DNA of 64,000 bases, taken from contig CAVVHS010000009.1 in assembly GCA_963748215.1 (NCBI GenBank), forward strand, positions 403,919 to 467,918, in the 5' to 3' direction. Origin of the DNA: an uncultured Gammaproteobacteria bacterium (GTDB taxonomy: Bacteria; Pseudomonadota; Gammaproteobacteria; UBA9214). Under the pieces are notes generated by a model that searched no databases, was not told the DNA's origin, and was given only the letters and a program-made list of their open reading frames with translations. A program made the position numbers and the translations under genes. Positions 42,120 to 55,693 of this stretch are shown here, in pieces. The first letter of the stretch is position 1, and each line of letters begins with the position of its first letter.

Positions 42120-42329
42120 TATTACCATTCTTTGCAATTTCCGGCGCTGACGCCGTCCCCTGGATAAATACGTCTTTGCATGGCTGGCGTGAATATCAAT
42201 CAGTTGATCCGGTAGGGGCATCAGCAGATACGTCCTTGCTGGATGGTCTGTCGTGGCAGGGGCGAAAGCGGGCGCGGGCGGCGGCAACTCATGTATATTT
42301 GGACACTGACTACACAACCTGCAGTGACC

Positions 42330-43952
42330 ATGTCCCGTAACCCCACCTTCAGACTGTTGCTCGCGGCCGGCGTTTTCGTCGGGATACTGGTGCTGCTGGC
42401 GATCCTGCTCAGCGCGGCGCAGTTCGCCCTGTCGCTGTGGCATGAGCTGCAGGCCGCGCCGGCCTGGGTGGTGGTGCTGGTGGCCGGTCTTGCCAGCGTG
42501 CTGCTCGGCTTCGGCCTCTGGCTGGTCTGGCGTATTGCACGCCCGGCCCGGGGCCGGGGCGGGAAGGCGGCCCCGCCACTGACGGAGGCCGAACTGCAGG
42601 CGCACCTGGAGGCCGCTCGTGCCGCGGGCATCGACGTCGAATCCGCCCGCCGCGAGCTGGAGGAGCTGGCACGGCGCCGCGAGCTGGAGGTCGTCCACCT
42701 TGCGCTGTTCGGCGAGATCAGCAGCGGCAAGAGTTCGCTGATCAATGCGTTGCTGCCGGGTGCGAGCGTGGCGACCGACGTGATCGGCGGTACCACGACC
42801 ACCGTCCAGCACTATCGCTGGCAGCGTGAATCCGGCGACGAGGTAATGCTGATCGATGTGCCGGGCCTCAATCAGATGGACGGCGAGTACGACCCGCTGG
42901 TCATGGACGAGGCGCAACGTGCGCATGCCGTGATCTTCGTCTGCGACGGCGACCTGACCCGCGGCGAATTCATGGCCCTGCAGCCGCTGCTGGCGCTGAA
43001 CAAGCCGCTGATCGTGGCCTTCAACAAGCTGGACCGCTATTCACGGGAGGACCGGAAACTGATTCGGCAGCATCTGGCCGCGCGTTTCGCCGGCAACCCG
43101 GAGGTGAGCATTGTCGGTATCGCCACCCACCCGACGCGCAAGGTCGTCAGGGTCGGTGCGGACGGCAGCGAGCATGAGGAGGAGCAGGTCCTGCCACCGC
43201 AGATCGACGAGTTGCGCGCGGCCGTGCAGTCCGCGCTGGATCGCAACATGCTGCTGCTGGAGCGCCTGCGCGATACCGCCGTGTTCGAACTGACCGCGCG
43301 CAAGCTGGACCAGGCGAAGGCGGAATACCGGGTCAGGGAGTCCTCTTCCCTGGTGAAGACCTATACCCGGCGCGCCGTGGCCGGCGGCATGGCGGCGATC
43401 AGCCCCGGCACCGACATCCTGATCCAGGGCTACCTGGGCACGCGCATGGTCAAGGCACTGTGTGAGCTGTACGAGGTACCGGTGCGCGAGATCGAGCTGA
43501 ACAAGCTGCTGGACCTGTCGCAGAAACAGGTGCGCACGGCCCTGCCGCTGCTGCTGGCCGTGGCCGGCAATGCGGCGAAGGCGTTCCCGGGCGTGGGTAC
43601 GCTGGCCGGCGGCCTGATGCATGCCGTCGCCTACGGGCTGATCTTCGACGCGCTGGGCCATGCCGTGATCCGCACACTGGAGACGCGCGGCGAGCTGCGG
43701 CCCGCCCCGACCAGCCTGACCTTCCGCGACAACCTCGTCACCGACGTGGAAACCCGCACGCGCAAGCTGCTGCGGCTGGCACTCGACGTGCGCAAGGAAC
43801 AGGGCGAGAACCCGGGCGGCCGACGGGTAGGGTCTGTGCGTAACAAGCTCTCGCGCAGAGACGCAGAGATCGCAAAGAGCAGGATGAATGGTGGCATGCT
43901 CGGGATACTATCTGGGAACGGGCAAGTTTCCGGATTTCCTTGGTTTTCCTGA
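42330..43952 (+). CDS. Membrane-anchored Era/HSR1-like GTPase with DUF697-like C-terminal domain
   Basis: Two N-terminal TMs, GEISSGKSS, DVPG, NKLD; C-terminus runs into a repeat element. Confidence 0.85.
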   Translation: MSRNPTFRLLLAAGVFVGILVLLAILLSAAQFALSLWHELQAAPAWVVVLVAGLASVLLGFGLWLVWRIARPARGRGGKAAPPLTEAELQAHLEAARAAGIDVESARRELEELARRRELEVVHLALFGEISSGKSSLINALLPGASVATDVIGGTTTTVQHYRWQRESGDEVMLIDVPGLNQMDGEYDPLVMDEAQRAHAVIFVCDGDLTRGEFMALQPLLALNKPLIVAFNKLDRYSREDRKLIRQHLAARFAGNPEVSIVGIATHPTRKVVRVGADGSEHEEEQVLPPQIDELRAAVQSALDRNMLLLERLRDTAVFELTARKLDQAKAEYRVRESSSLVKTYTRRAVAGGMAAISPGTDILIQGYLGTRMVKALCELYEVPVREIELNKLLDLSQKQVRTALPLLLAVAGNAAKAFPGVGTLAGGLMHAVAYGLIFDALGHAVIRTLETRGELRPAPTSLTFRDNLVTDVETRTRKLLRLALDVRKEQGENPGGRRVGSVRNKLSRRDAEIAKSRMNGGMLGILSGNGQVSGFPWFS

Positions 43953-44046
43953 ACAGGCTACATACTCAACGATATGCAACATACCCGCGTACTCCCTGTT
44001 CTCTCTGGCAGGATTTGTCCTGCGCACTCTGCGTCTCTGCGCGAGA
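43849..44046. repeat. About 200-bp element with perfect 20-bp terminal inverted repeats
   Basis: tctcgcgcagagacgcagag (43849) / ctctgcgtctctgcgcgaga (44027). Confidence 0.8.
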
Positions 44047-44077
44047 TATTGATATTTCGAATAGCGGTAATGACGAC

Positions 44078-45364
44078 ATGAGCTCCGACGAGCACCTCGA
44101 CCAGGCGCGCGACAGCCTGGAACTGCTGTTGCAGGACAAGCGCCTGCCGCCGGAGGCGCGCACGGAGCTGGCCGACGATTTCCGGCAGGTGCAGGCCATG
44201 CTCGACAAGCTGGAGCACGGTCACATTCATATCGCGGTGCTGGGTCGCGTCAGTGTCGGCAAGTCCTCGGTGCTCAACGCCCTGATCGGTGAACGGCGCT
44301 TTTCCACCAGCGCCCTGCACGGCGAGACCAAACAGCACGCCATGGCGCACTGGGACGAGCAGGCCAGTGGTTCGCTGTTCCTGATCGATACACCGGGCAT
44401 CAACGAAATCGACGGCGAGGCGCGTGAGCGCATGGCGACCGAAGTATCGCAGCGCTCCGACCTGGTGCTGTTCGTCATCGACGGCGACATGACCGACAGC
44501 GAGTACCACGCGTTGCAGGGCCTGGCGCAGCAGCACCGGCCGCTGCTGCTGGTGCTGAACAAGTGCGACCGCTATTCCGCCGCGCAGCGCGCGCAGCTGC
44601 GCAGCAGCCTGCTGGCGCGGCTGGAACACCTCATCCCGCCCGGGAATTTCATCGAGGTGTCTGCCGATCCGGCGCCGCGCATCTATATCACCACGGATGC
44701 CGAGGGCCGGGAAACCGAGACCGAACGTTCGCCGCCGCCCGATGTCACGGCGCTGAAGGACCGTATCTGGGACATCCTCGAGGCGGAAGGCAAGACGCTG
44801 GCGGCACTCAATGCCAGCCTGTTTGCCGGCGACCTGAGCGACAGGGTCGGTGTGCGCGTACTGGCTGCGCGCCGCCGGCTGGGTGACAGGGTGGTGCGCA
44901 ACTACAGCCTGGTCAAGGGCATCGCGGTGGCCATCAATCCGGTGCCGATTGCGGACCTGGCGGCGGCGGTGACCGTGGATTTTTCCATGGTGGTGCACCT
45001 GGCCGATGTCTACGGCATGCCCATGACGCGCGCACAGTCCGGCAAGCTGATCAAGACCATCAGCAAGCAGTTGCTGCTGCTGATGGGCACTACCTGGTTC
45101 ATACACCTGGTGTCGTCGCTGCTGAAGGCAGGCAGCGGCGGCCTGTCGACCCTGCTGACCGCCGGCACGCAGGGTGCGGTGGCGTATTACTCGACCTACG
45201 TGGTCGGGCGCGCGGCGGAGGCCTACCTCGCGGCCGGCTGTTCCTGGGGCGAGGGCGGGCCGAAGCGGGTGATCCGCGATATTCTCGACAGCCTCGACCG
45301 CGACTCGATGCTGGCGCGGGCGCGCCAGGATATTCTCGCACGCATCGGCAGCACGCGCGCCTGA
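44078..45364 (+). CDS. Era/HSR1-like GTPase with DUF697 domain
   Basis: GRVSVGKSS, DTPG, NKCD, AINPVPIADL, SWGEGGPK. Confidence 0.88.
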   Translation: MSSDEHLDQARDSLELLLQDKRLPPEARTELADDFRQVQAMLDKLEHGHIHIAVLGRVSVGKSSVLNALIGERRFSTSALHGETKQHAMAHWDEQASGSLFLIDTPGINEIDGEARERMATEVSQRSDLVLFVIDGDMTDSEYHALQGLAQQHRPLLLVLNKCDRYSAAQRAQLRSSLLARLEHLIPPGNFIEVSADPAPRIYITTDAEGRETETERSPPPDVTALKDRIWDILEAEGKTLAALNASLFAGDLSDRVGVRVLAARRRLGDRVVRNYSLVKGIAVAINPVPIADLAAAVTVDFSMVVHLADVYGMPMTRAQSGKLIKTISKQLLLLMGTTWFIHLVSSLLKAGSGGLSTLLTAGTQGAVAYYSTYVVGRAAEAYLAAGCSWGEGGPKRVIRDILDSLDRDSMLARARQDILARIGSTRA

Positions 45365-45665: not shown

Positions 45666-46139
45666 TTATACCGCCTGTATTTTCTGCCGTGACCGGTTCA
45701 GGCTGGCCGGGTCGAAGTCCGCAGCGATGTAACCGAGGATCGACTGTCCCGCGGTGACGCCGTACATCACGGTCACGCACGGCCGACGGTTTGCCTGGCT
45801 GATGTAGGTGTCGCACAGAAACGCACCCTGGAAGGCCGCGTTGTTCAGCACCGACAGGCTGACGGAGTAGGGGCGCCGGGACAGGTCCTGGCCGTAGGCG
45901 TCGGTGTCGATCGCGCCGGTGCGGATATTGGAACTGACCTGGCGTCCATCGCTGTCGATGGCATAGAGCAATTCACAGTGCGGACAGACGCCGACGTTTT
46001 CGCTCAATACCTGGTCGAGCCGGCCGCGGTTGAACCAGACCCTGATCGAGCGCCGTGCGATCAGGCGCAATGATGTATCGAAGCGCTGGCCGAGCGCGTC
46101 GAAATCCTGTGGCCGGGTGTCCCGTAGTGTGTTGACCAT
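45666..46139 (-). CDS. Stand-alone PDC/Cache-like sensor domain protein
   Basis: LLYAIDSDGRQVSSN, GQDLSRRPY, YISQANRRPCVTV, GYIAADF. Confidence 0.7.
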   Translation of the reverse strand: MVNTLRDTRPQDFDALGQRFDTSLRLIARRSIRVWFNRGRLDQVLSENVGVCPHCELLYAIDSDGRQVSSNIRTGAIDTDAYGQDLSRRPYSVSLSVLNNAAFQGAFLCDTYISQANRRPCVTVMYGVTAGQSILGYIAADFDPASLNRSRQKIQAV

Positions 46140-46198
46140 GGCTGCCCCCGTTGACAGGCGGCATGTGCCGCCAAAAACACCAGCTTCACCAGGGGAAA

Positions 46199-46215
46199 TG
46201 CAGGATGCATGCCAG
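46199..46215 (-). promoter_or_regulatory. Possible sigma-54 promoter
   Basis: CTGGCATGCATCCTGCA (GG-N10-GC) about 60 bp upstream of the PDC gene. Confidence 0.4.
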
Positions 46216-46391
46216 TTGCCCAGGGATTCGGCAAGCACCTGTAAACAGCCGGTATTACCGTGCGTGCTGACAACCCTGCAGCGGACGGTGCGCACGAACC
46301 GTGTGCAGGACAGGCAGATTTGCCCAACACGGGTGCGGGCAGACAGCGCAATCCCGACGGGTCTCACGCGCATGCGGGAGACAGGCTCGGG

Positions 46392-46839
46392 CTATTCCAG
46401 GCAGTCGGGGACGTGATATTCCTGGTCCAGTCCGTAGACTTCGTCGAAGCTGCCGTCGCAATCGCTGTCCCGGATGACATAGTTGTCGATGCCGCTGGTC
46501 GGAGTCGCGTGTATCCAGGCTCCAGGCCCAGAGTCGGTCCCTGGTGGTCATGCTGAACAAACTGTCACCGTTTATGCTCATGTACTGCATGATATGAGTT
46601 TCGTTCTCGCCGTCACCGTCACCGTCGGCATCGCGTTCGGAGTGCAGGGTAAAACCCTCCAGTCCCGGCGGCGTGAAGTTCTCGGCGTGCGCGATCGGCA
46701 GGTATAAGAGTGCCCCGACGATAATGACCAGCCAGGGTGTGACCAGCCGTGCGCCGGGCTGATGCACCGCTGTCAGGCCGGTTTGGTCTGTGAGTTTGCT
46801 GTTGCCGGCGACCGGCCGGCACGGGAATTGTTTGATCAT
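46392..46839 (-). CDS. Exported acidic hypothetical protein, frameshift near 46495
   Basis: Hydrophobic leader then ERDADGDGDGENETH..WAWSLD; the other frame continues NYVIRDSDCDGSFDEVY..VPDCLE*. Confidence 0.6.
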
Positions 46840-47237
46840 GGTTTTATACTCTTCTGTGTGACCGCGTTGTTTTCCGGAATCTGCGCCTGTGTGACGACAA
46901 CCCCCCTTGCCACAGTGGATCAGAATGCCATGGCTACATACAGCCGTCCTGCGGTGCGCATGCACTGTGGGGATGCTGTCATAACCGTCAGCCTCGATTG
47001 TACTTGTAAAATAGCATTATTTGTAATTCCAGGCTGTGAGCCGGCCACGCGCCGTGGTCGATGACAGGCAGGGTGAGAGGCCGGGGGCACAGGTTCAGCG
47101 TCTACCCTGGTCAACCAGGGCCGCGATCAGGGGCAGACAGCCTGCAGCAGGAAACCGCCGCCCGCTGGCAAGCCAGGTCACCTGGTCGCAAGCCGCCCGG
47201 CCGCCTGCGCCACGGACGCTGTGTACCGCGTGCGGAC

Positions 47238-47747
47238 TCAGCCCACCGGCTGCAGAGACTTGGCGTAGATCACCTTGCCGTCGCCCGGCGCGTAGAAATC
47301 CGGCAGCCGGGCCGCGGCGTGAAACCCCGTGCCTTCGTAGAATTTGCGCGTCGGCGCATACTGCGCGCGCGAGGACGTTTCGGCATACACCAGGCGTCCG
47401 CCCGACGCGCCGATGTGCGCCTCGGTTGCCTCGAGCAGTCGGCGTCCATAGCCCCGGCCCTGTTGATCCGGCGCCACGACGATCCAGTACAGGTCATAGC
47501 TGCCGGCGGTGCCGGGGATCTCGCCATAACAGGTGTAGCCCAGCAGGGTGCCCGACTGCTCGAGCAGCAGGAAGCGGTAGCCACTGGCCGCTCCGCGGGC
47601 GAGGGCTTCCTCGACCAGCTCGGCGGCAATGCCGACTTCATCGTTACTGAAAAACCCGGTTGCCTGCACCAGTGCGCGCACGGCAGCGATGTCCGCCGGC
47701 TGCAGCGCCGTGCGCAGCACCGGGTCAGCTGCGCTTGCCTGTGCCAC
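47238..47747 (-). CDS. GNAT N-acetyltransferase
   Basis: YDLYWIVV, QQGRGYGRRL, ETSSRAQYAPTRKFY; GTG start immediately after the upstream stop. Confidence 0.88.
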   Translation of the reverse strand: MAQASAADPVLRTALQPADIAAVRALVQATGFFSNDEVGIAAELVEEALARGAASGYRFLLLEQSGTLLGYTCYGEIPGTAGSYDLYWIVVAPDQQGRGYGRRLLEATEAHIGASGGRLVYAETSSRAQYAPTRKFYEGTGFHAAARLPDFYAPGDGKVIYAKSLQPVG

Positions 47748-47748
47748 G

Positions 47749-49509
47749 TCAAGGTCCCTTGCTGCGCGGCGGCTGCGCCGGGTGCATGCCTTCCCAGAGC
47801 CCCTGGAAGAAATGTCTGGCATTCTGTCCCAGCGAACGCGTGCGGTAACCACCCTCCTGGGTAACCAGCGTCGGCAGGCCCAGCGCGCCGATCATGCGGC
47901 CGTTTTCGTGAAAGTCCCTGGTGGTCAGGGTAAACGAGCCGGTCGGGTCGCCCTTCGCGGTATCCAGGCCGAGCCCCAGCACCAGGTAGCGCGGTTCGAA
48001 GCGGGCGACCTGTTTCAGCGCACGCGCGAGATGCTGCCGGTAAGCGGCACCGTCCAGTCCTTCCGGCAGCGGAATGTTGAGGTTGTAACCCAGTCCCTCG
48101 CCTTCCCCGCGTTCGTCCTCGAAACCACTGAAGTAGGGGTAGGTCATGCGCGGGTGGCCGTGCAACGATATCGTGAACACGTCGGCGCGCTGGTAGAAGA
48201 TGTTTTCCGTGCCGTTGCCATGATGATAGTCCACGTCGAGCACCACGACCTTGCCGTAGCGGCTCAGGTAGTTGGCCGCGACCGCCGCGGAATTGAAATA
48301 GCAGAACCCGCCGAAGCTGCCGCGTTCGGCATGGTGGCCGGGCGGGCGCACCAGGGCGTAGGCCGCACGGTAGCCGTCCACCAGGCACTGCGCGCCGGTC
48401 AGCGCGCAGTCGACGGCGCCGAGTGCCGCCAGCGAGGCATTGCGGTTCAGCGGTGTGAAGGTGTCGATGCAGTAATAGCCGGCGCGTAGCGGCAGGTCAT
48501 GTGGCGGGCGTGCTGCATTGCGGATCGGGAACACGTACGGGTAGACCGACTTGCCTTCCGGTACCCGCGCACAGGCATGCAACAGGTACTGGACGAAATC
48601 CCGATCATGCACGGCCCTGATCCAGGACTGCGGAAATTTGCGTGCCGGCATGCGTTCGAAGAAACCCGGTTTTTCCAGTTCCTGCAGGATCACCTTGATG
48701 CGCACCGGCGATTCCACGTAGCCACGCTCGCGTACGTGGTGGATATCGTGCTTGTCGTTGACGATCAGCGCGATGCGTCGCTCGCGCACCGGTGCCGGCG
48801 CCGTCTTGCCGGCGCCGCGGATATAGCGCGGCGCGCGCAGCTGCACGGGGTCGTCCTTGATGGAGGCGATGACAAGCTCGACATAGTCCTGCGGACACAG
48901 CTCGCCGTACTTCCTGTCCAGGATGGCGCGTACGATGCGGCGCGCCGCGGCACGACCCAGCGGCTGGTCGCTGCCGAGCGGGTCCATGACCAGGTAGGGC
49001 GGGTTGTCGTCACCGGGCCTGACCGGTGTCTCGTAGGCGGTGTTGGCCAGCGGACGTGCGCCATAGCGTTCGTAGAATTTCAGGCGTGCCGCGTTCTGCG
49101 CGCGTACCTCCGGGTCGGGCGACAGGGCCGGATCGTCGGGCAGGCATTCGAAGAACAGCCCGGTCACATCCAGCGCGGCGGCTTCCTCGCGTACCCGTTC
49201 GTACAGTGCCCCGCCGATGCCGCCACCGGTGCCGCCGGGCGCGGCGCTGATGTACTCCAGGTAGGCGAAACGCAGGTCCGGCGCATGCAGCAACAGCGCG
49301 AACCCGCGCAGCTCGCCATGGCCCTTTTCCGCGGCCAGCAGCTGGGCATGGAAGCGGTGCTTGAGCGGATCGTGCAGCTGGTTCGGCAGCTTGGCGATGT
49401 CGTCTTCACCCAGGCCGGGAAACTGCGCGCGCAGGATGGCCTGTGCCTGCGCGATGGCCGCCTGGTTGGCAGGCGTGGCGTCGTCGTAGATCTTGCGGAT
49501 CAGGAACAT
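47749..49509 (-). CDS. GNAT domain fused to a histone deacetylase / acetylpolyamine amidohydrolase domain
   Basis: N-terminal GGGIGGALY..RLKFYERYG; C-terminal RPPGHHA, GGFCYFN, DVDYHHGNGT, GLDTAKGDP, QEGGY. Confidence 0.9.
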   Translation of the reverse strand: MFLIRKIYDDATPANQAAIAQAQAILRAQFPGLGEDDIAKLPNQLHDPLKHRFHAQLLAAEKGHGELRGFALLLHAPDLRFAYLEYISAAPGGTGGGIGGALYERVREEAAALDVTGLFFECLPDDPALSPDPEVRAQNAARLKFYERYGARPLANTAYETPVRPGDDNPPYLVMDPLGSDQPLGRAAARRIVRAILDRKYGELCPQDYVELVIASIKDDPVQLRAPRYIRGAGKTAPAPVRERRIALIVNDKHDIHHVRERGYVESPVRIKVILQELEKPGFFERMPARKFPQSWIRAVHDRDFVQYLLHACARVPEGKSVYPYVFPIRNAARPPHDLPLRAGYYCIDTFTPLNRNASLAALGAVDCALTGAQCLVDGYRAAYALVRPPGHHAERGSFGGFCYFNSAAVAANYLSRYGKVVVLDVDYHHGNGTENIFYQRADVFTISLHGHPRMTYPYFSGFEDERGEGEGLGYNLNIPLPEGLDGAAYRQHLARALKQVARFEPRYLVLGLGLDTAKGDPTGSFTLTTRDFHENGRMIGALGLPTLVTQEGGYRTRSLGQNARHFFQGLWEGMHPAQPPRSKGP

Positions 49510-49527
49510 GGATACCTGCGGGGGCTG

Positions 49528-50550
49528 TCAGCCCAGTGAAGCGACTTGTGTACGGGCCGGGGCGGTCGTGCTGTCAGGCAGCCGGACACGCGCCACGATG
49601 TGTCCTATCAAATCGGTGAAGTCCAGGCCTGCCTCGGCTGCGGCAGCGGCAAAACCCGCGTCCGGCGACAGGCAGGGGTTGGTGTTGATTTCCAGCACCT
49701 GCGGCTCGCCCCGGGTATCGATGCGAATGTCGACACGGGCATAACCGCGCAGGCCGAACAACTGCCAGCATGCCCGCCCCAGCACCTGCAGGGTATTGTC
49801 GAGCGCAGTCTCGGCACCGGCCTGGATAAATCGCCGCGGCGTGTGATGGTACTCGAACGCCTCGCTGTCCCACTTGGCGGCGTAATTCACGATGCGCGGC
49901 TTGCCGTCCGGAAAGGCGGAAAAGTCGATTTCCGCGACGGGCAGGATGCGCACGCCCGTTGCGTCCTCCAGCAGGGCGATGTTGTACTCGCGACCGTCGA
50001 CAAAACGTTCGGCAAACCATGTGCCGCCGTAGCGCTCGCGCTGTTGTGCGATGCGCGCACGGATCGTATCGCCGCCGCTGACGATGGCGTGGTCGTCGAT
50101 ACCGATGGAGGCATGTTCCCAGACCGACTTGACGATCCAGCTGCCGGTCCCGGCGTCGCTGCCATCCTCGCTCCAGGCGGGGGTCGCCACGCCGTGCGTA
50201 GCGAGCCAGCGTTTCGCCAGCAGCTTGTTCGAGGTGAGAAACTGCGCGTCCGCGCCGGCGCCGGTATAGGGGATGCCGAGGCGGTCGAGCAGTTGCGGCA
50301 CCCAGGCGATGAAAGCCCCCTGGCCATTCAGCGATTCGACCAGGTTGAAAGCCAGCGCCGGCCGCGAGCGCAGCAGCTCGTGTTGCAGCTTGTCGAGGTT
50401 CGTGGTGACGGCCCGCAGCAGCGGCTGGTAGCCGTGCGCGCGCAGGGCGGCTGCCACTGCCTCGGCCTCGATCAGCGCATCCTGCTCATCGGGCGGGGCA
50501 TTGGCCGGGACGGCGCCGTACAACACCGCAACACGCAACTTGCCGGTCAT
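49528..50550 (-). CDS. D-Ala-D-Ala ligase-like ATP-grasp enzyme (non-canonical) 2
   Basis: FNLVES, IPYTGA, IVKSVWEHASIGI, GYARVDIR, LEINTNP. Confidence 0.88.
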   Translation of the reverse strand: MTGKLRVAVLYGAVPANAPPDEQDALIEAEAVAAALRAHGYQPLLRAVTTNLDKLQHELLRSRPALAFNLVESLNGQGAFIAWVPQLLDRLGIPYTGAGADAQFLTSNKLLAKRWLATHGVATPAWSEDGSDAGTGSWIVKSVWEHASIGIDDHAIVSGGDTIRARIAQQRERYGGTWFAERFVDGREYNIALLEDATGVRILPVAEIDFSAFPDGKPRIVNYAAKWDSEAFEYHHTPRRFIQAGAETALDNTLQVLGRACWQLFGLRGYARVDIRIDTRGEPQVLEINTNPCLSPDAGFAAAAAEAGLDFTDLIGHIVARVRLPDSTTAPARTQVASLG

Positions 50551-51557
50551 GACGTGGCCGCCTGCAGCGCGGGCGCCATGCCCATGGGGAGCCGCTGCAG
50601 TGCCGCCTCCAGGATCGTGCCGATCAGATCGCGGTATTCGATGCCCTGGAAGCGCGCGATGAAGGCGAGATCGGAGCGTTCCGGGTTGAGTCCCGCGAGC
50701 GGGTTGACCTCGATGAAGTGCGGCGTGCCGTCTGCGGCAAGTCGCACGTCGACCCGGCCCCCGTCGCGGCAACCGAGCGCGCGCCAGGCGTCGAGCGCGA
50801 CCTGCCCGGCCGCGTTTGCATCGGGGCCGCGTACCAGCCGGTATTCGCAGCGCGACTCGAACGCTTCCTTGTTGAGGAACGAGTACACTTCGCTGTCGCC
50901 TGCGCCGGTCGCCAGCACTTCCAGCACGCCGAGCGGGCGCGCATCGTTGCCGCTGCCGACGATGCCGACGGTGAACTCCCTGCCCGGCAGGAAGGTCTCC
51001 ACGAGCACCGGCTGCGCGTAGCGCGCGAGCAGGTCACGGCAGGTCGCGCCAAGGGTGGCGTGATCGTTGATCTTCGAGGCCGCGCTGATACCCTTGCTGG
51101 TGCCTTCCGCCACCGGCTTGGCGAACAGTGGCAGCGGCAGGCCGATGTGTGCGAGGTCCGCCGGGGTTTCCACCAGGATGAAGTCCGGCGTCGCTATTCC
51201 GCAGTCACGCACCACATGCTTGGCGAGTCCCTTGTGCAGGCACAGCGCCAGCGTGGTTGCATCGGAAAAGGTGTACGGGATGCGGTACGCGTCGAGCAGC
51301 GCCGGAATCTGCGCCTCACGTGCATGGCCGTACACACCCTCGGCGATGTTGAACACCAGGTCCCAGCGCTCGCCGGCCAGCAGCCGCGGCATCAGCGCCG
51401 CCAGGTTGCCGATCGGCTCGACGCTGTGGCCGAAGCTTTCAATGGCCGCGCGGATGGCGTCGATGGTCTCCGGTCGGTCGAATTCAGCCGCGGCTTCCTC
51501 GTCGAAACCCTGTGCGAGGTACTCGTCGCGCAGGTCGTAGGTAAAGCCTATTCTCAC
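50547..51557 (-). CDS. D-Ala-D-Ala ligase-like ATP-grasp enzyme (non-canonical) 1
   Basis: FNIAEG, IPYTFS, FAKPVAEGTSKGI, GRVDVR, IEVNPLAG. Confidence 0.9.
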   Translation of the reverse strand: MRIGFTYDLRDEYLAQGFDEEAAAEFDRPETIDAIRAAIESFGHSVEPIGNLAALMPRLLAGERWDLVFNIAEGVYGHAREAQIPALLDAYRIPYTFSDATTLALCLHKGLAKHVVRDCGIATPDFILVETPADLAHIGLPLPLFAKPVAEGTSKGISAASKINDHATLGATCRDLLARYAQPVLVETFLPGREFTVGIVGSGNDARPLGVLEVLATGAGDSEVYSFLNKEAFESRCEYRLVRGPDANAAGQVALDAWRALGCRDGGRVDVRLAADGTPHFIEVNPLAGLNPERSDLAFIARFQGIEYRDLIGTILEAALQRLPMGMAPALQAATS

Positions 51558-52867
51558 GAGTCCTGCTCCTTGGGCGTTACAGCCACGGCGCCGGTCACGG
51601 CCGGGTCATGGTAGCGGTACAGCCTGTTTTCGAAGTTGCGCAGCACCAGGTCGTCGCCGTCGCGGCCGACGACGTAGTCCGGCACCAGCGGGATCTTGCC
51701 GCCGCCGCCGGGGGCGTCGATGACGTAGTGCGGGACGGCATAACCGGTGGTGTGGCCGCGCAAGCCGCGGATGATCTCCAGGCCCTTCTCGACCGGGGTG
51801 CGGAAATGCGCCGAGCCGGTGATGGGATCGCACTGGTACAGATAGTAGGGTCGTACGCGTATCTTCAGCAGCTCGTGCATGAGTTTCTTCATGGTCTCGA
51901 CATTGTCGTTGATGCCGGCGAGCAGCACGGTCTGGCTGCCCAGCGGTACACCGGCATCGGCCAGCCTGCCGCAGGCCTCGGCGACTTCGGGCGTGATTTC
52001 ATCGGGGTGCGTGAAGTGAATGGACAGCCATACCGGTCCGTAGCGGCGGAACAGGCGCAGCAGGGCGGGCGTGATGCGCTGCGGCAGCACGGCCGGCACC
52101 TTGGTGCCGATGCGCACGAACTCGACGTGCGGGATCTTTTTCAGACGCGTGAGCAGGTACTCCAGCTTGTCGTCGTCCAGGCTGAGCGGATCGCCGCCCG
52201 ACAGCAGTACGTCGCGAATGGTCGGGGTGCGCTCGATGTAGTCGAGTGCCGCCTCGTGGTCGCTGCGCCGGATGGCCTTCTCGCCGGCCGCGCCGACCAG
52301 CCGCGAGCGCGTGCAATAGCGGCAATAGGTGGTGCAGATGCCCGTGACCAGGAACAGCACCCGGTCCGGGTAGCGGTGCACGAGGCCCGGCACCGGGCTG
52401 TCGTGGTCCTCGCCCAGCGGATCGTCTGCCTCGCCGGGGCTCCTCAGGTATTCACCGGTCACCGGTATCACCGACTTGCGCAGTGGCTGGGTCGGATCGG
52501 TCGCGTGCAGCAGGCTGGCATAGTAGGGCGTAATGCCGACCGGCAGCGGTCCGGTGTGACGCTCGATGGCCTCGCGTTCGTCCGCACTTGGCTCGATGAT
52601 GCGTGCCAGCTCGCGCAGGTCGCGGATGCGGTTACGGTTCTGCCAGCGCCAGTCATTCCAGTCGCGCACACTGGCCTCCGGGAAGAACTGCTTGCGGAAG
52701 GCGTGACTGCGCGGGCTTATGGTCAGCCGGGGAACGGGGTGTGCGAGATTGCGGGTGAGGGAGACGAGATGCGGGGCAACGGGGCCTGAACAGGCATTGC
52801 TCTGGCGGGTTTGTGCAACAAGTCCTGGAGGCTCTTCCTCTTCGGCAAGCACGATCTGTTTCTTCAT
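51554..52867 (-). CDS. kamA: KamA-family radical SAM/PLP aminomutase, probably lysine 2,3-aminomutase
   Basis: GLVHRYPDR, CTTYCRYCTR, LSGGDPL, YLYQCD, IDAPGGGGKIP. Confidence 0.92.
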   Translation of the reverse strand: MKKQIVLAEEEEPPGLVAQTRQSNACSGPVAPHLVSLTRNLAHPVPRLTISPRSHAFRKQFFPEASVRDWNDWRWQNRNRIRDLRELARIIEPSADEREAIERHTGPLPVGITPYYASLLHATDPTQPLRKSVIPVTGEYLRSPGEADDPLGEDHDSPVPGLVHRYPDRVLFLVTGICTTYCRYCTRSRLVGAAGEKAIRRSDHEAALDYIERTPTIRDVLLSGGDPLSLDDDKLEYLLTRLKKIPHVEFVRIGTKVPAVLPQRITPALLRLFRRYGPVWLSIHFTHPDEITPEVAEACGRLADAGVPLGSQTVLLAGINDNVETMKKLMHELLKIRVRPYYLYQCDPITGSAHFRTPVEKGLEIIRGLRGHTTGYAVPHYVIDAPGGGGKIPLVPDYVVGRDGDDLVLRNFENRLYRYHDPAVTGAVAVTPKEQDS

Positions 52868-53166
52868 GATATATCCTCGTAACGTTCAGCAGCCGGTGAC
52901 TGCGTGCAGGTCGTGAGCGGCTGATCCTGCAAAAGATTTAACCGTTCCGTCCCGGGTTGACTTCCCGTTGCCTTTTAGCTGGTGAAGACGCATGCCGCCG
53001 GTTTTGGAATCTGCGCAATCATAGGGATGGGCGGATAAAAAACAAGACGTCCGGTGAAATATATTTACCCTGCCGGCGCGGCTGTCCATGCCTGATCGAC
53101 GGGGCCATGCCCCGCTTCCCGGATCATGCCGGCACGTTGCTGACAGCGCCCTTGCGCCGTGCCTGT

Positions 53167-54285
53167 TCAGGTCCGCAGGGCTGGCTGTTGGGTGTGCAGA
53201 AACCAGCGCTCGAGCAGGACGTGCTGCACGAACCAGCGGTTGCCCATGAGTCCTGTCGCCAGCCGTGACTTGACGGGCTGTGGCAGCCAGGCCGACCAGT
53301 CGCGTGCCTCGCGCGGTCCGAAACGGGCTTGCAGCCGGGCACGGTAGGGCTCGAGGTCGGCGCGGGAATAGCGTCCCCGCGCCTGCAGGATGGTCGCGGC
53401 GGCCAGCAGGCCGGATTCGATGGCAGGCCGGATGCCTTCACCGCTTTCGCTAAAGGCCAGGCCGGCGGCGTCGCCGGCCAGCAATACACCGTCGTCGAGC
53501 AGCGTGCGGTGCGCGTGCCGGTAGAGCAGGTAGGCATGCCCCTTGAAGCGCGGCTGCAGGCCGGCGGGAATGCGTCCGGCGGCGCCCAGGAACTCGTGGA
53601 AGGCGGTCACGTGCTGCGCCAGTGCAGGCTCGCCTTCGCGGCCCAGACCGATGTTGAGAAAGTCGCCCTTGCGCATGCACCAGCCATAGCCCTTGAGGTC
53701 CTTGCAGAAGTACAGCTCGGGTATGCCGGGCTGGCAGCGGCAGGCGGCGCGTTGAGCGGGATCCAGCGCGAACTCGCTCTCCTGGGCCCTGACCGCGAGT
53801 TCGGTGTGTCCGACGTCGGCACCCAGCCTGCGCGCCACCGGGCAGAAGTGCCCGCCCGCGCCGACGATCACCGGTGTCTGCAACGATCCATTGACCCGCC
53901 AGCCATCCGCGTTGCGCACCAGCTGTGCGAGCGGCTCCCCGGTACGCAGGCGTGCGTCCGCGCGCTGCAGCAGATAGGTGTCGAATTCACAGCGGCGGAT
54001 GCCGTAACTGACCACGCAGTCGTGGCCGGTTTCGAGCATGGGTCCGTCCATGACCCCGGTGCGAAAGCCGCTGATGGGCTGGAATACCCGCTGCCGCCGG
54101 TAATCCTCGATATCCAGCTCAAGCAGTTCGATGACCGCCGGCGTGATCCAGCCCGCACAGGTCTTGTCGCGGGGGAATGCCGCCTTGTCCATCACGACGA
54201 CATCCAGTCCGGCCTGACGCAGTGCGCGTGCACAACTGCTGCCCGCGGGGCCGCCGCCAACGATCAGGACATCACACCGGTCCAT
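53167..54285 (-). CDS. FAD-dependent reductase, geranylgeranyl reductase family
   Basis: IVGGGPAG, FPRDKTCAG, GYGW, AGDAAG, GEGIRPA. Confidence 0.88.
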   Translation of the reverse strand: MDRCDVLIVGGGPAGSSCARALRQAGLDVVVMDKAAFPRDKTCAGWITPAVIELLELDIEDYRRQRVFQPISGFRTGVMDGPMLETGHDCVVSYGIRRCEFDTYLLQRADARLRTGEPLAQLVRNADGWRVNGSLQTPVIVGAGGHFCPVARRLGADVGHTELAVRAQESEFALDPAQRAACRCQPGIPELYFCKDLKGYGWCMRKGDFLNIGLGREGEPALAQHVTAFHEFLGAAGRIPAGLQPRFKGHAYLLYRHAHRTLLDDGVLLAGDAAGLAFSESGEGIRPAIESGLLAAATILQARGRYSRADLEPYRARLQARFGPREARDWSAWLPQPVKSRLATGLMGNRWFVQHVLLERWFLHTQQPALRT

Positions 54286-55693
54286 GGCCTGTCAGCCCTT
54301 GTTTTGCATAGAGGTGGTCCCGCGTCCATGCAATTTCGTTGCAGTCGGGGCGGGTGAAGACCACCTGGAAGAGTTCCAGCCAGCCGGTGCTGAAACTGGC
54401 AATCGACCCGGCCAGGTAGAGACGCCAGGCCCTGACGAAGTCCTCGTCGAAACGCGCGCGCACCTCGTCCTCCCGGGCAGTGAAGCGTGCCAGCCAGTGC
54501 TCGAGGGTCCTTGCGTAGTGCAGGCGCAGGTTTTCCACGTCCAGCACCGAGAAGCCCCAGGGTTCGAAAATGTCCATCATCTCGCGCAGGGTCGGCGGGT
54601 AGGCCCCCGGAAAGATTCGCTTCTCGATCCAGGCGTTCATGGGGCAGGGTTGGTCGCGGGCAATGGTATGAATGAGTCCCCTGCCCGTGGGCGCGAGGCA
54701 GCGGTCGATAATGCCGCCCAGGTTGCGATAATTGGAGCGCCCGACATGTTCCAGCATGCCGACCGCGACAAATGCGTCACACCGGCCGGTGATATTGCGA
54801 TAGTCGTCTTCGATGTATTCGACCTGTTGACCGAGTCCTCCCGCCGCCGCACGCTCGCGCGCATAGCGGACCTGTTCGCCGGACAGGTTGTAGGCGCGCA
54901 CCCTGACGCCGTACTCCCTGGCCATGTAGAGTGCCAGGGCCCCCCAGCCGCAACCCGCCTCGATGACGGTCTCGCCGGGCTGCAACTGCAGCTTGCGGCA
55001 GACGTATTCCATCTTGGCGCGCTGGGCCTGCTCCAGGGTCAGCTCCCGGGACGGAAAATAGGCGCATGTATAGACCATTTCCTCGTCCAGCCAGAGTCGG
55101 AAGAACGCGTTACCGAGATTGTAGTGATGACTGATGTTGGTCCGCGAACTGTCCGGCGTGTTCGCTCGCGCGCGATTGCGCCACAGCTGCCAGGCCCGGA
55201 GCAGGGTGTTGTACCGGCCGGTCCGGGGCGCGGCGCGGTTGATGGTTTCGAGAAAGCTGACCAGGTCGCCTTCCACCTCCAGGCTGCCCCGGCAGTAGGC
55301 ATCACCGAAATGCAACTCCGGGTTGATGATCAGCCGCCACAGCGTATTACGGTCATGGATCTGCAAGCGCCTGCCGCCCGGTGCGTCGCCGAGTGTCACC
55401 TGCTCGCCGTTCCAGAGCACGAAGCACACGGGCGGGCTGCCCATCAGCACGAGCAGTTTGCGCAGCGCCCGGCGTTCCAGCCCGGTGGGCGCCGCGACGT
55501 CCGGCCGGTTCGCGGCGGCCGGCCGTTTGCGTGGTGGCACGCCGATGGAATGTGTTGCGCTGGCAGCTGCCGGGACCTTGTGCCTGCTCACAACGCCGTC
55601 ACTGTTTGTGCTGGCGCATTGTCCGGGTATGCCGCTGCGTTCAGTCACGGGTACCGGTATCCTGCCGGTCCGGTTCCGGGGTGCCGGGCTCAT
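54272..55693 (-). CDS. Cyclopropane-fatty-acyl-phospholipid synthase family methyltransferase
   Basis: HHYNLGN, YTCAYF, EAGCGWG, GMLEHVG, IFPG, HYARTL; true start probably downstream of 55693. Confidence 0.9.
   Translation of the reverse strand: MSPAPRNRTGRIPVPVTERSGIPGQCASTNSDGVVSRHKVPAAASATHSIGVPPRKRPAAANRPDVAAPTGLERRALRKLLVLMGSPPVCFVLWNGEQVTLGDAPGGRRLQIHDRNTLWRLIINPELHFGDAYCRGSLEVEGDLVSFLETINRAAPRTGRYNTLLRAWQLWRNRARANTPDSSRTNISHHYNLGNAFFRLWLDEEMVYTCAYFPSRELTLEQAQRAKMEYVCRKLQLQPGETVIEAGCGWGALALYMAREYGVRVRAYNLSGEQVRYARERAAAGGLGQQVEYIEDDYRNITGRCDAFVAVGMLEHVGRSNYRNLGGIIDRCLAPTGRGLIHTIARDQPCPMNAWIEKRIFPGAYPPTLREMMDIFEPWGFSVLDVENLRLHYARTLEHWLARFTAREDEVRARFDEDFVRAWRLYLAGSIASFSTGWLELFQVVFTRPDCNEIAWTRDHLYAKQGLTGHGPV

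Follow-up and report, generated by a model that had tools for sequence, protein, structure and literature searches.

The question raised by the locus described here is what product is made by five closely packed genes at positions 47238-52867 of the window, the whole 64,000-nucleotide stretch of DNA that was analysed (positions 403,919 to 467,918 of contig CAVVHS010000009.1, assembly GCA_963748215.1), which comes from an uncultured gammaproteobacterium of the lineage UBA9214. These genes encode a homolog of lysine 2,3-aminomutase (KamA), two ATP-grasp ligases resembling D-alanine--D-alanine ligase (Ddl), here called AG1 and AG2, a fusion of a GNAT-like domain to a predicted zinc deacetylase (GH), and a second, small GNAT. 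The locus is a real, conserved and misannotated operon that represents an uncharacterised variant of beta-lysine metabolism, and it is probably a self-contained operon for a small amide or oligo-amide derived from beta-lysine, in which acetylation would reversibly mask the free amino group or groups. An earlier interpretation made from the letters of the DNA (the sequence-only reading), in which beta-lysine is ligated to an acceptor and then acylated and deacylated, is partly supported as a whole.

The observation of a five-gene operon on the minus strand is confirmed. While the G+C content of 60-69% in this part of the window leads to many spurious open reading frames (ORFs), the ORF list of the window contains five co-oriented frames on the minus strand, which are as follows:

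52868..53166, minus strand: upstream intergenic region of 299 nt; a GAGGA ribosome-binding site lies 8 nt 5' of the kamA ATG (read from the sequence)
51554..52867, minus strand: kamA, radical-SAM/PLP enzyme of the lysine 2,3-aminomutase type, 437 aa (Pfam, NCBIfam, alignment to 2A5H)
50547..51557, minus strand: AG1, Ddl-like ATP-grasp ligase 1, 336 aa (Dala_Dala_lig_C, NF002378)
49528..50550, minus strand: AG2, Ddl-like ATP-grasp ligase 2, 340 aa (Dala_Dala_lig_C, NF002378)
47749..49509, minus strand: GH, predicted GNAT/deacetylase fusion, 586 aa (Pfam)
48805..49509, minus strand: N-terminal part of GH, predicted divergent GNAT fold, about residues 1-235 (Pfam, AlphaFold2, Foldseek)
47800..48717, minus strand: C-terminal part of GH, predicted zinc deacetylase of the acetylpolyamine-amidohydrolase type, residues 265-570 (Hist_deacetyl, PDB matches)
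47238..47747, minus strand: small GNAT, 169 aa from the GTG at 47747 (Pfam, orthologue of 2R7H)

When the junctions were read directly, all of them agreed with the overlaps and gaps that had been reported: the kamA stop and the AG1 start share the GTGA at 51557-51554, the AG1 stop and the AG2 start share the ATGA at 50550-50547, the AG2 stop is followed after a gap of 18 nt by the GH ATG at 49509, and the GH stop after a gap of 1 nt by the GTG of the small GNAT at 47747. For the small GNAT, an in-frame ATG at 47822 offers an alternative start, from which the protein would have 194 residues.

KamA carries the Pfam domains LAM_C and Radical_SAM and matches the lysine 2,3-aminomutase of Clostridium subterminale (2A5H) with 468.7 bits over residues 58-423. 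In this alignment, the YQCD and IDAPGGGGK motifs of KamA fall on D293, D330 and K337 of 2A5H, where we take K337 to be the lysine that holds pyridoxal phosphate (PLP) and D293 and D330 to be the residues that hold the epsilon-ammonium group of lysine. Equivalents of these three residues are conserved in 38/38 KamA orthologues from cassettes of this kind (the set left after removal of two rows reading through a stop), and the CxxxCxxC cluster motif is present in the same 38 rows, that of the window included, which bears out the remark that KamA keeps both of the acidic residues associated with lysine binding. The protein passes the subfamily model TIGR00238 (355 bits, cut-off 199), reaches 484.5 bits on the AblA model TIGR03820, below its cut-off of 525.4, and lies far under the cut-offs of the glutamate aminomutase, arginine aminomutase and EpmB models. 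On this strong homology, KamA is predicted to be a lysine-type aminomutase and a maker of beta-lysine, as had been proposed. A second KamA-family gene is found in the source genome (C1:56101-57048, minus strand; 318 bits on TIGR00238), which may be the EpmB that acts on elongation factor P (EF-P).

The two ligases share the fold and the family (PF07478, Dala_Dala_lig_C) of E. coli DdlB (2DLN/1IOV), with 78.8 bits for AG1 and 67.1 bits for AG2. On the Ddl model NF002378, whose cut-off is 243, AG1 reaches 136.7 bits and AG2 115.4 bits; the true ddl of the genome scores 405.3 bits and lies in a murB-ddl-ftsQ-ftsA cluster elsewhere on the contig, outside of which the AG1 and AG2 genes are found, in agreement with the statement that the ligases do not belong to a cell-wall cluster. 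For comparison at the level of residues, 47 AG1 and 50 AG2 rows (including two AG1 rows and one AG2 row that read through a stop) were aligned to DdlB from NC_000913.3, the letters of which were checked against the sequence. Both ligases conserve DdlB K97, K144, E180, K215, R255, D257, E270 and N272, which serve ATP, Mg and the acyl-phosphate, and seven of these positions are kept in all rows of the alignment except for one AG2 row with Ala at E180, while E270 is Glu or Asp throughout. The residues that we take to be the D-Ala-binding triad (E15, S150, Y216) and those presumably forming the carboxylate site (S281/L282) read A/T/E and S/D in AG1 and D/A/W and A/G in AG2, and H63 has become an almost invariant Glu in both; the canonical GGxSxE motif, described earlier as missing, indeed lacks its E15 equivalent in each ligase. 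Since the catalytic residues are conserved and the substrate contacts are replaced, AG1 and AG2 look catalytically competent with altered substrate pockets, and their chemistry is probably that of Ddl, in which a carboxylate is converted to an acyl-phosphate that is attacked by an amine. They differ from Ddl in the replacement of E15, H63, Y216 and L282, in being paired or fused, in their position outside the cell-wall cluster, and in being dispensable in Desulfovibrio alaskensis G20 (see below). In the ESM Atlas, AG1 finds only clusters named 'D-alanine--D-alanine ligase family', a database name that is almost certainly wrong for the cassette ligases. Prediction of an AG1-AG2 complex gave scores of 0.29 and 0.30, with the mark at 0.32.

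The deacetylase part of GH matches Hist_deacetyl with 253 bits over residues 265-570, and its best PDB matches are acetylpolyamine amidohydrolases of cluster 4 (6PHR, 250 bits; 9GKZ, 233; 3MEN, 228; 3Q9B, 224), with lower values for two-domain HDAC6 chains (190-215 bits over two stretches) and for single-domain HDAC6 and bacterial HDAH chains (about 122-127 bits). Cluster-4 enzymes have been described to deacetylate N-acetylputrescine and N-acetylcadaverine (PMC11532494). GH conserves the tandem His, the Asp-His-Asp zinc site and the catalytic Tyr, and across orthologues the motifs PPGHH, DxDxHHGNG and EGGY are found in 77/77, 76/77 and 77/77 proteins, respectively. Unlike the acetylpolyamine amidohydrolases, GH has an N-terminal GNAT, to which a C-terminal GNAT is added in 10/80 loci, and it co-occurs with the ligase cassette. 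The N-terminal region scores 25.2-28.1 bits on Acetyltransf_1 (cut-off 20.7), its AlphaFold2 model has a mean pLDDT of 90.9, and the best Foldseek matches of this model are GCN5 acetyltransferase domains (target-normalised TM 0.77-0.78), with 2R7H at 0.78; the CoA-binding loop keeps G97 and G99 in 40/40 sequences. Though divergent, this stretch of about 235 residues is a real GNAT.

The small GNAT matches Acetyltransf_7 and Acetyltransf_1 (46.5 bits) and is an orthologue of the structural-genomics protein 2R7H (153 bits, E 4.8e-44), which is identified in the Foldseek entry title as the DDE_3044 protein from Desulfovibrio desulfuricans (now alaskensis) G20, and which in turn matches the corresponding GNAT of an Oleidesulfovibrio locus with 251 bits. 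The label of 2R7H, 'D-alanine N-acetyltransferase', looks like a guess. No match of the small GNAT to the AblB model TIGR03827 was found at E<=0.01, its match to RimI is weak (39.8 bits, cut-off 86.4), and further weak PDB matches (E 4e-7 to 7.5e-3) are phosphinothricin acetyltransferases and the tabtoxin resistance protein.

A survey of gene neighbourhoods, which had been suggested as a check, was carried out through GH, whose relatives occupy at least 572 places in species-representative genomes, and 80 of these loci were fetched. All five genes, in varying order, were present in 42/80 loci, GH alone in 25/80 and a partial set in 13/80, many of the partial loci ending at contig ends. Because the 42 complete loci are spread across many phyla, the five-gene arrangement is not a product of chance. 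Among the phyla are Thermodesulfobacteriota, Chloroflexota, Planctomycetota, Bacteroidota, Acidobacteriota and Gammaproteobacteria, the carriers being mostly anaerobic sediment bacteria, and GH is 55-66% identical across phyla among the relatives listed. No sixth gene recurs beside the cassette in the 80 loci; the next commonest neighbour, a sigma-54 response regulator, is present in 9/80. Within the window's own class the distribution is patchy, with the cassette in 18/300 sampled genomes including the source genome (two of the 18 being unpublished genomes), and the one congener sampled (100% complete) does not have it.

Natural fusions, as far as sequence can tell, tie the steps of the pathway together. 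The best 120 longer homologues of AG1 comprise 60 AG1-AG2 fusions, in keeping with the idea that the two ligases form a unit, together with five KamA-AG1 fusions, one AG1-AG2-GNAT fusion and 54 proteins with tandem AG1-like halves. GH and the small GNAT are fused in 10/80 loci, giving proteins of 750-758 aa (verified for locus L049), and in the five genomes with GH alone and full flanks, an AG1/AG2 tandem was found elsewhere in 5/5. These two results place the acylation and deacylation functions in the system as had been envisaged, while the proposed order of events, ligation first and acylation second, is not established. The tandem AG1-like proteins form a second fused architecture whose partner half is not AG2-like; three examples show about 37% identity to AG1 in the N-terminal half and 44-48% in the C-terminal half, and the members with names come from Myxococcota and Anaeromyxobacteraceae. 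An apparent KamA-AG1 fusion in locus L062 was discarded, as the ORF list has two genes there and tblastn had read through the stop.

Beyond the conversion of L-lysine to beta-lysine by KamA, which is predicted from strong homology, we infer the remaining steps from fusions, conserved residues and one set of mutant data. AG1 would receive beta-lysine directly from KamA, as the KamA-AG1 fusions suggest, and the two ligases, working as a single unit, would make one ATP-dependent amide bond each, by way of an acyl-phosphate; the partner substrate may be another beta-lysine or a common metabolite. The small GNAT would then acetylate a free amine of the product or of an intermediate, a step to which the fusions and the mutant data point, and the uncapped, more cationic compound would be harmful. 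The deacetylase domain of GH could strip the N-acetyl group from an aminoalkyl chain and the GNAT domain of GH could restore it, resulting in a charge switch or in a cycle of protection and deprotection. By our own reasoning, an N-epsilon-acetyl-beta-lysyl group would be a natural substrate for GH, having the same acetamide-C4-ammonium spacing as N-acetylputrescine.

The closest known parallel in the first step is the AblA/AblB pathway by which methanogens and some bacteria make N-epsilon-acetyl-beta-lysine, reportedly described by Pflueger and colleagues in 2003 (cited through PMC9337991 and PMC3543383), where lysine 2,3-aminomutase likewise acts first and an amine of beta-lysine is acetylated with acetyl-CoA. 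The cassette differs from AblAB in having two additional ATP-grasp ligases and the GNAT/deacetylase fusion, a small GNAT that does not match AblB, and a KamA just under the AblA cut-off (484.5 vs 525.4 bits). Other systems also lead to small amino-acid derivatives, namely that for N-acetylglutaminylglutamine amide (Ngg), which combines a GNAT and an ATP-grasp enzyme, and kamA-yodP of Bacillus subtilis, with an aminomutase, an acetylase and a deacetylase; they use other enzyme subfamilies and gene sets, and neither has twin Ddl-like ligases. No description of the five-gene set was found in the full-text literature, papers on aminomutases and ATP-grasp enzymes included, and a full-text search that covered neither subscription-only papers nor bioRxiv supplements found no paper assigning a product to it, as the sequence-only reading had surmised.

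Genetic data that bear on this scheme are available for D. alaskensis G20, where the cassette corresponds to Dde_3041-3044 (kamA, the ligases and the GNAT), the last of which is the protein of structure 2R7H and is not adjoined by a GH gene. In Dataset S2 of PMC4045070, the entry for Dde_3040 is a sigma-54 two-component regulator and that for Dde_3041 a lysine 2,3-aminomutase family protein, Dde_3040-3044 are all classed 'Dispensable' and ddlB (Dde_0366) 'ExpectedEssential', and the same strain is listed with ablA (Dde_0189), ablB (Dde_0188) and an unlinked gene of the deacetylase superfamily (Dde_2337). Strain fitness over 82 conditions was taken from DataSheet2 of PMC4215793, with two strain rows for each gene out of three or four, and includes two experiments at 800 mM NaCl (chips 440 and 492), for which the values are as follows:

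ablB: chip 440, -0.76 to -1.26; chip 492, -1.61 to -2.34
ablA: chip 440, -0.66 to -1.11; chip 492, -1.72 to -2.43
cassette kamA: chip 440, -0.19 and +0.09; chip 492, -0.35 and -0.05
AG1: chip 440, -0.27 and +0.12; chip 492, -0.14 and -0.02
AG2: chip 440, -0.07 and +0.01; chip 492, -0.03 and -0.13
GNAT Dde_3044: chip 440, -0.58 and -0.77; chip 492, -1.00 and -1.63
Dde_2337: chip 440, +0.04 and +0.31; chip 492, -0.18 and +0.16

In the same rows, the GNAT mutants are also impaired at pH 6.0 (-0.77, -1.01), in a chip labelled 'pH' (-0.86, -1.02) and with 200 uM H2O2 (-0.37, -1.09), and the ablA and ablB mutants are close to zero in conditions other than salt (PMC4215793). Since Dde_3044 closes its operon and the genes after it lie on the opposite strand, a polar effect is unlikely. 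Impairment of the GNAT mutants while mutants in the upstream enzymes are unaffected is what a harmful uncapped intermediate would be expected to cause, and a harmful uncapped product of the ligases appears to be the simplest explanation of the GNAT-only defect; at high salt, AblA would enlarge the pool of beta-lysine and thereby feed the ligases. Dde_3044 may alternatively be a minor beta-lysine acetylase, a reading which by itself leaves the acid and peroxide phenotypes unexplained because the ablAB mutants do not have them.

In a further experiment of the same data set, with the biocide THPS at 0.1 mM (chip 446), mildly positive values were seen for the regulator (+0.49 to +0.97), kamA (+0.54/+0.61), AG1 (+0.25/+0.43), AG2 (+0.20/+0.32) and the GNAT (+0.12/+0.30), an effect that is gone in chip 494 (PMC4215793).

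Several points weigh against the proposed pathway. Mutants in kamA, AG1 and AG2 have no consistent phenotype in the DataSheet2 rows for these genes over the 82 conditions (PMC4215793), all four cassette genes range from -0.53 to +0.46 in the phosphate-limitation data of PMC5193443, and mutants of Dde_2337, which is only a candidate orthologue of GH, are neutral (PMC4215793). In the GNAT mutants the effect is of moderate size and was seen in two strains, and it may stem from another beta-lysine acetylase activity or from an unrelated substrate. All five activities are predictions from homology, the substrate proposed for GH depends on family resemblance and chemical comparison, and no recognisable promoter or regulator of the operon was found within the window. 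As G20 has further KamA-family genes (Dde_0189, Dde_2747), redundancy can mask phenotypes. The main texts of the G20 papers contain nothing on aminomutase, lysine or D-alanine, the cassette locus tags are not in the supplements of PMC4001038 and PMC3658271, and a literature search on the G20 locus tags, that of Dde_3044 included, found no paper.

A bolder form of the proposal, offered tentatively and as a possibility that we rate well below even, is that the product is an oligo-beta-lysine or beta-lysyl amide polycation, similar to a polyamine, whose charge and toxicity are switched by a dedicated pair of acetylase and deacetylase. If true, its charge would govern binding to nucleic acids or membranes, the stress sickness of the G20 capping mutant would be a case of polycation poisoning, and the cassette would represent an unnoticed system of polyamine-like homeostasis in anaerobic sediment bacteria.

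Of the explanations that compete with a reversibly masked beta-lysyl amide, the one that survives best, although unlikely, is that the cassette makes a compatible solute, an acetylated osmolyte like a beta-lysine dipeptide that would be an extended form of the AblAB product or an analogue of N-acetylglutaminylglutamine amide, with GH degrading or retuning it as salinity falls. The sequencing runs that match this DNA are labelled sediment and marine metagenomes, the source genome has no AblB (best 19.4 bits, cut-off 205), and no ectoine synthase match was found in it with a model that matched no control genome either, so that this absence is weak. Salt sensitivity of the G20 GNAT mutants fits such a role as well, and elsewhere beta-lysine genes have been placed under Na+ and c-di-AMP riboswitches, both of which precede a lysine aminomutase gene of Dehalobacter in the account given in PMC9337991. 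Against this, none of 27 cassette loci has a riboswitch that reaches the Rfam gathering score, the window has none at E<=1, and AblB is present in one of five cassette genomes tested and in G20, which means that the two systems coexist. In G20 at 800 mM NaCl, kamA, AG1 and AG2 mutants stay between -0.35 and +0.12 where ablA and ablB mutants fall to -0.66 to -1.26 in chip 440 and to -1.6 to -2.4 in chip 492, and from these scores the cassette is neither needed under salt nor compensating for AblAB. With both systems in one strain and the strong salt phenotype confined to the ablAB mutants, we argue that AblAB and not the cassette is the principal route to a salt-stress solute in G20, and the osmolyte idea that was implicit in the earlier comparison with AblAB is not sustained by the neutral kamA and ligase mutants.

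It is rather improbable that the product is a secreted antimetabolite or signal, a di- or tripeptide of beta-lysine comparable to tabtoxin, bacilysin, rhizocticin or bialaphos, which the GNAT would keep from harming its producer and the deacetylase would activate. In G20 only the GNAT mutant is sick, and mutants that lack a shared secreted good score neutral in pooled fitness assays; the patchy distribution in the class (18/300 genomes, none in the one congener) and the weak matches of the small GNAT to phosphinothricin acetyltransferases and the tabtoxin resistance protein point the same way, but the latter are matches at the level of the superfamily only. No exporter, peptidase or immunity gene recurs in the 80 loci, and identities of 55-66% for GH across phyla fit core physiology better than they fit antibiotic clusters.

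Addition of beta-lysine to a protein, for example to an EF-P-like or, in the manner of RimK, a ribosomal protein, followed by acetylation and deacetylation, is a very remote prospect. EpmB and EpmA add beta-lysine to EF-P and RimK-type ATP-grasp enzymes modify S6, the GNAT and HDAC families include acetylases and deacetylases of protein lysines, and the small GNAT has its weak match to RimI. The deacetylase of GH, in contrast, groups with acetylpolyamine amidohydrolases, no conserved target gene accompanies the cassette, the ligase mutants of G20 are neutral in 82 conditions, and the second KamA-family gene of the source genome could serve EF-P separately. The protein was one entry in the list of acceptors put forward earlier (an amino acid, a polyamine, a cell-wall precursor or a protein), from which it is now disfavoured along with the cell-wall precursor.

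Cell-wall synthesis, with AG1 and AG2 as spare or alternative D-Ala-D-X ligases or as enzymes that place beta-lysine on a peptidoglycan precursor, most likely is not the function of the cassette and has hardly any claim to belief: Ddl and VanA are the closest sequence relatives of the ligases and the depositors named 2R7H a 'putative D-alanine N-acetyltransferase', but AG1 and AG2 score far below the Ddl cut-off, other residues stand at their D-Ala contacts E15, S150 (in AG2), Y216 and L282, the source genome has a true ddl in murB-ddl-ftsQ-ftsA, and in G20 ddlB is 'ExpectedEssential' despite the presence of a cassette that is itself 'Dispensable'. Lysine fermentation or catabolism was rejected, since no aminotransferase, CoA-transferase or thiolase recurs and two ATP-consuming ligases do not fit such a pathway.

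Identification of the product of the amide pathway proposed here would add a new beta-amino-acid metabolite to the physiology of anaerobes, put right a misannotation that is widespread, and assign a function to the orphan structure 2R7H. The proposal is directly testable in D. alaskensis G20, which is cultivable and genetically tractable, carries the cassette, and has mapped transposon mutants in every cassette gene.

With regard to the control of expression, the region upstream of kamA in the window contains no sigma-70-like site or other recognisable promoter and, on the operon strand, no match to a sigma-54 -24/-12 site, and a looser sigma-54 pattern gave 102 matches in the window where 90.6 were expected. 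In other loci, a sigma-54 promoter pattern was found in 2/26 upstream regions examined, both from Desulfovibrionaceae, where near-consensus promoters, TGGCACATACGTTGCT at L056:3736 and TGGCACATGCGTTGCT at L072:3713, lie between a gene for an NtrC-type regulator and kamA. The second of these loci, from Oleidesulfovibrio, has the gene order of G20, with the regulator gene and a TGGCAC-N5-TTGC promoter upstream, and the layout of regulator, promoter and kamA in both loci agrees with Dde_3040-3041 in G20. The riboswitch scan described above covered the 27 of the 80 loci with an upstream spacer of at least 72 nt (at least 144 nt in 26 of them), and the scan of the window covered positions 46000-54000, where no Rfam family was found at E<=1 except for a DicF match at the level of chance. 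The sole Rfam match in the 27 loci was a tmRNA (L020:9831-10180, minus strand, 162.8 bits) directly 3' of GH in a metagenome-assembled genome of Dehalococcoidales.

The sediment and marine metagenome labels belong to those sequencing runs, from two studies, that contained at least half of the sampled words of this DNA, and the DNA run ranking first among them may be the source sample. In an estuary metatranscriptome run, whose depth shows a gap over part of AG2, contigs 90-99% alike were found over parts of all five genes; the 82 contigs (2 at >=99%, 17 at 95-99% and 63 at 90-95%) are those of relatives, with possible carry-over of DNA.

The genes that flank the operon in the window were considered as members of the system and set aside, since none of the 80 loci contains a counterpart of them. 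On the upstream side they comprise, in the orientation of the operon, a gene for a FAD-dependent oxidoreductase (53167-54285, minus strand) and one for a methyltransferase resembling cyclopropane-fatty-acid (CFA) synthase (54272-55693, minus strand), which overlap by 14 nt. Downstream, two overlapping ORFs on the minus strand (46255-46965 and 45666-46373), which match no Pfam family and reach dCache_1 only below threshold, may represent a single sensor gene with a frameshift or a pair of orphans. Further on, a pair of GTPase genes on the plus strand, one with MMR_HSR1 (42243-43952) and one with MMR_HSR1 and DUF697 (43940-45364), overlap by 13 nt and are unrelated to the operon.

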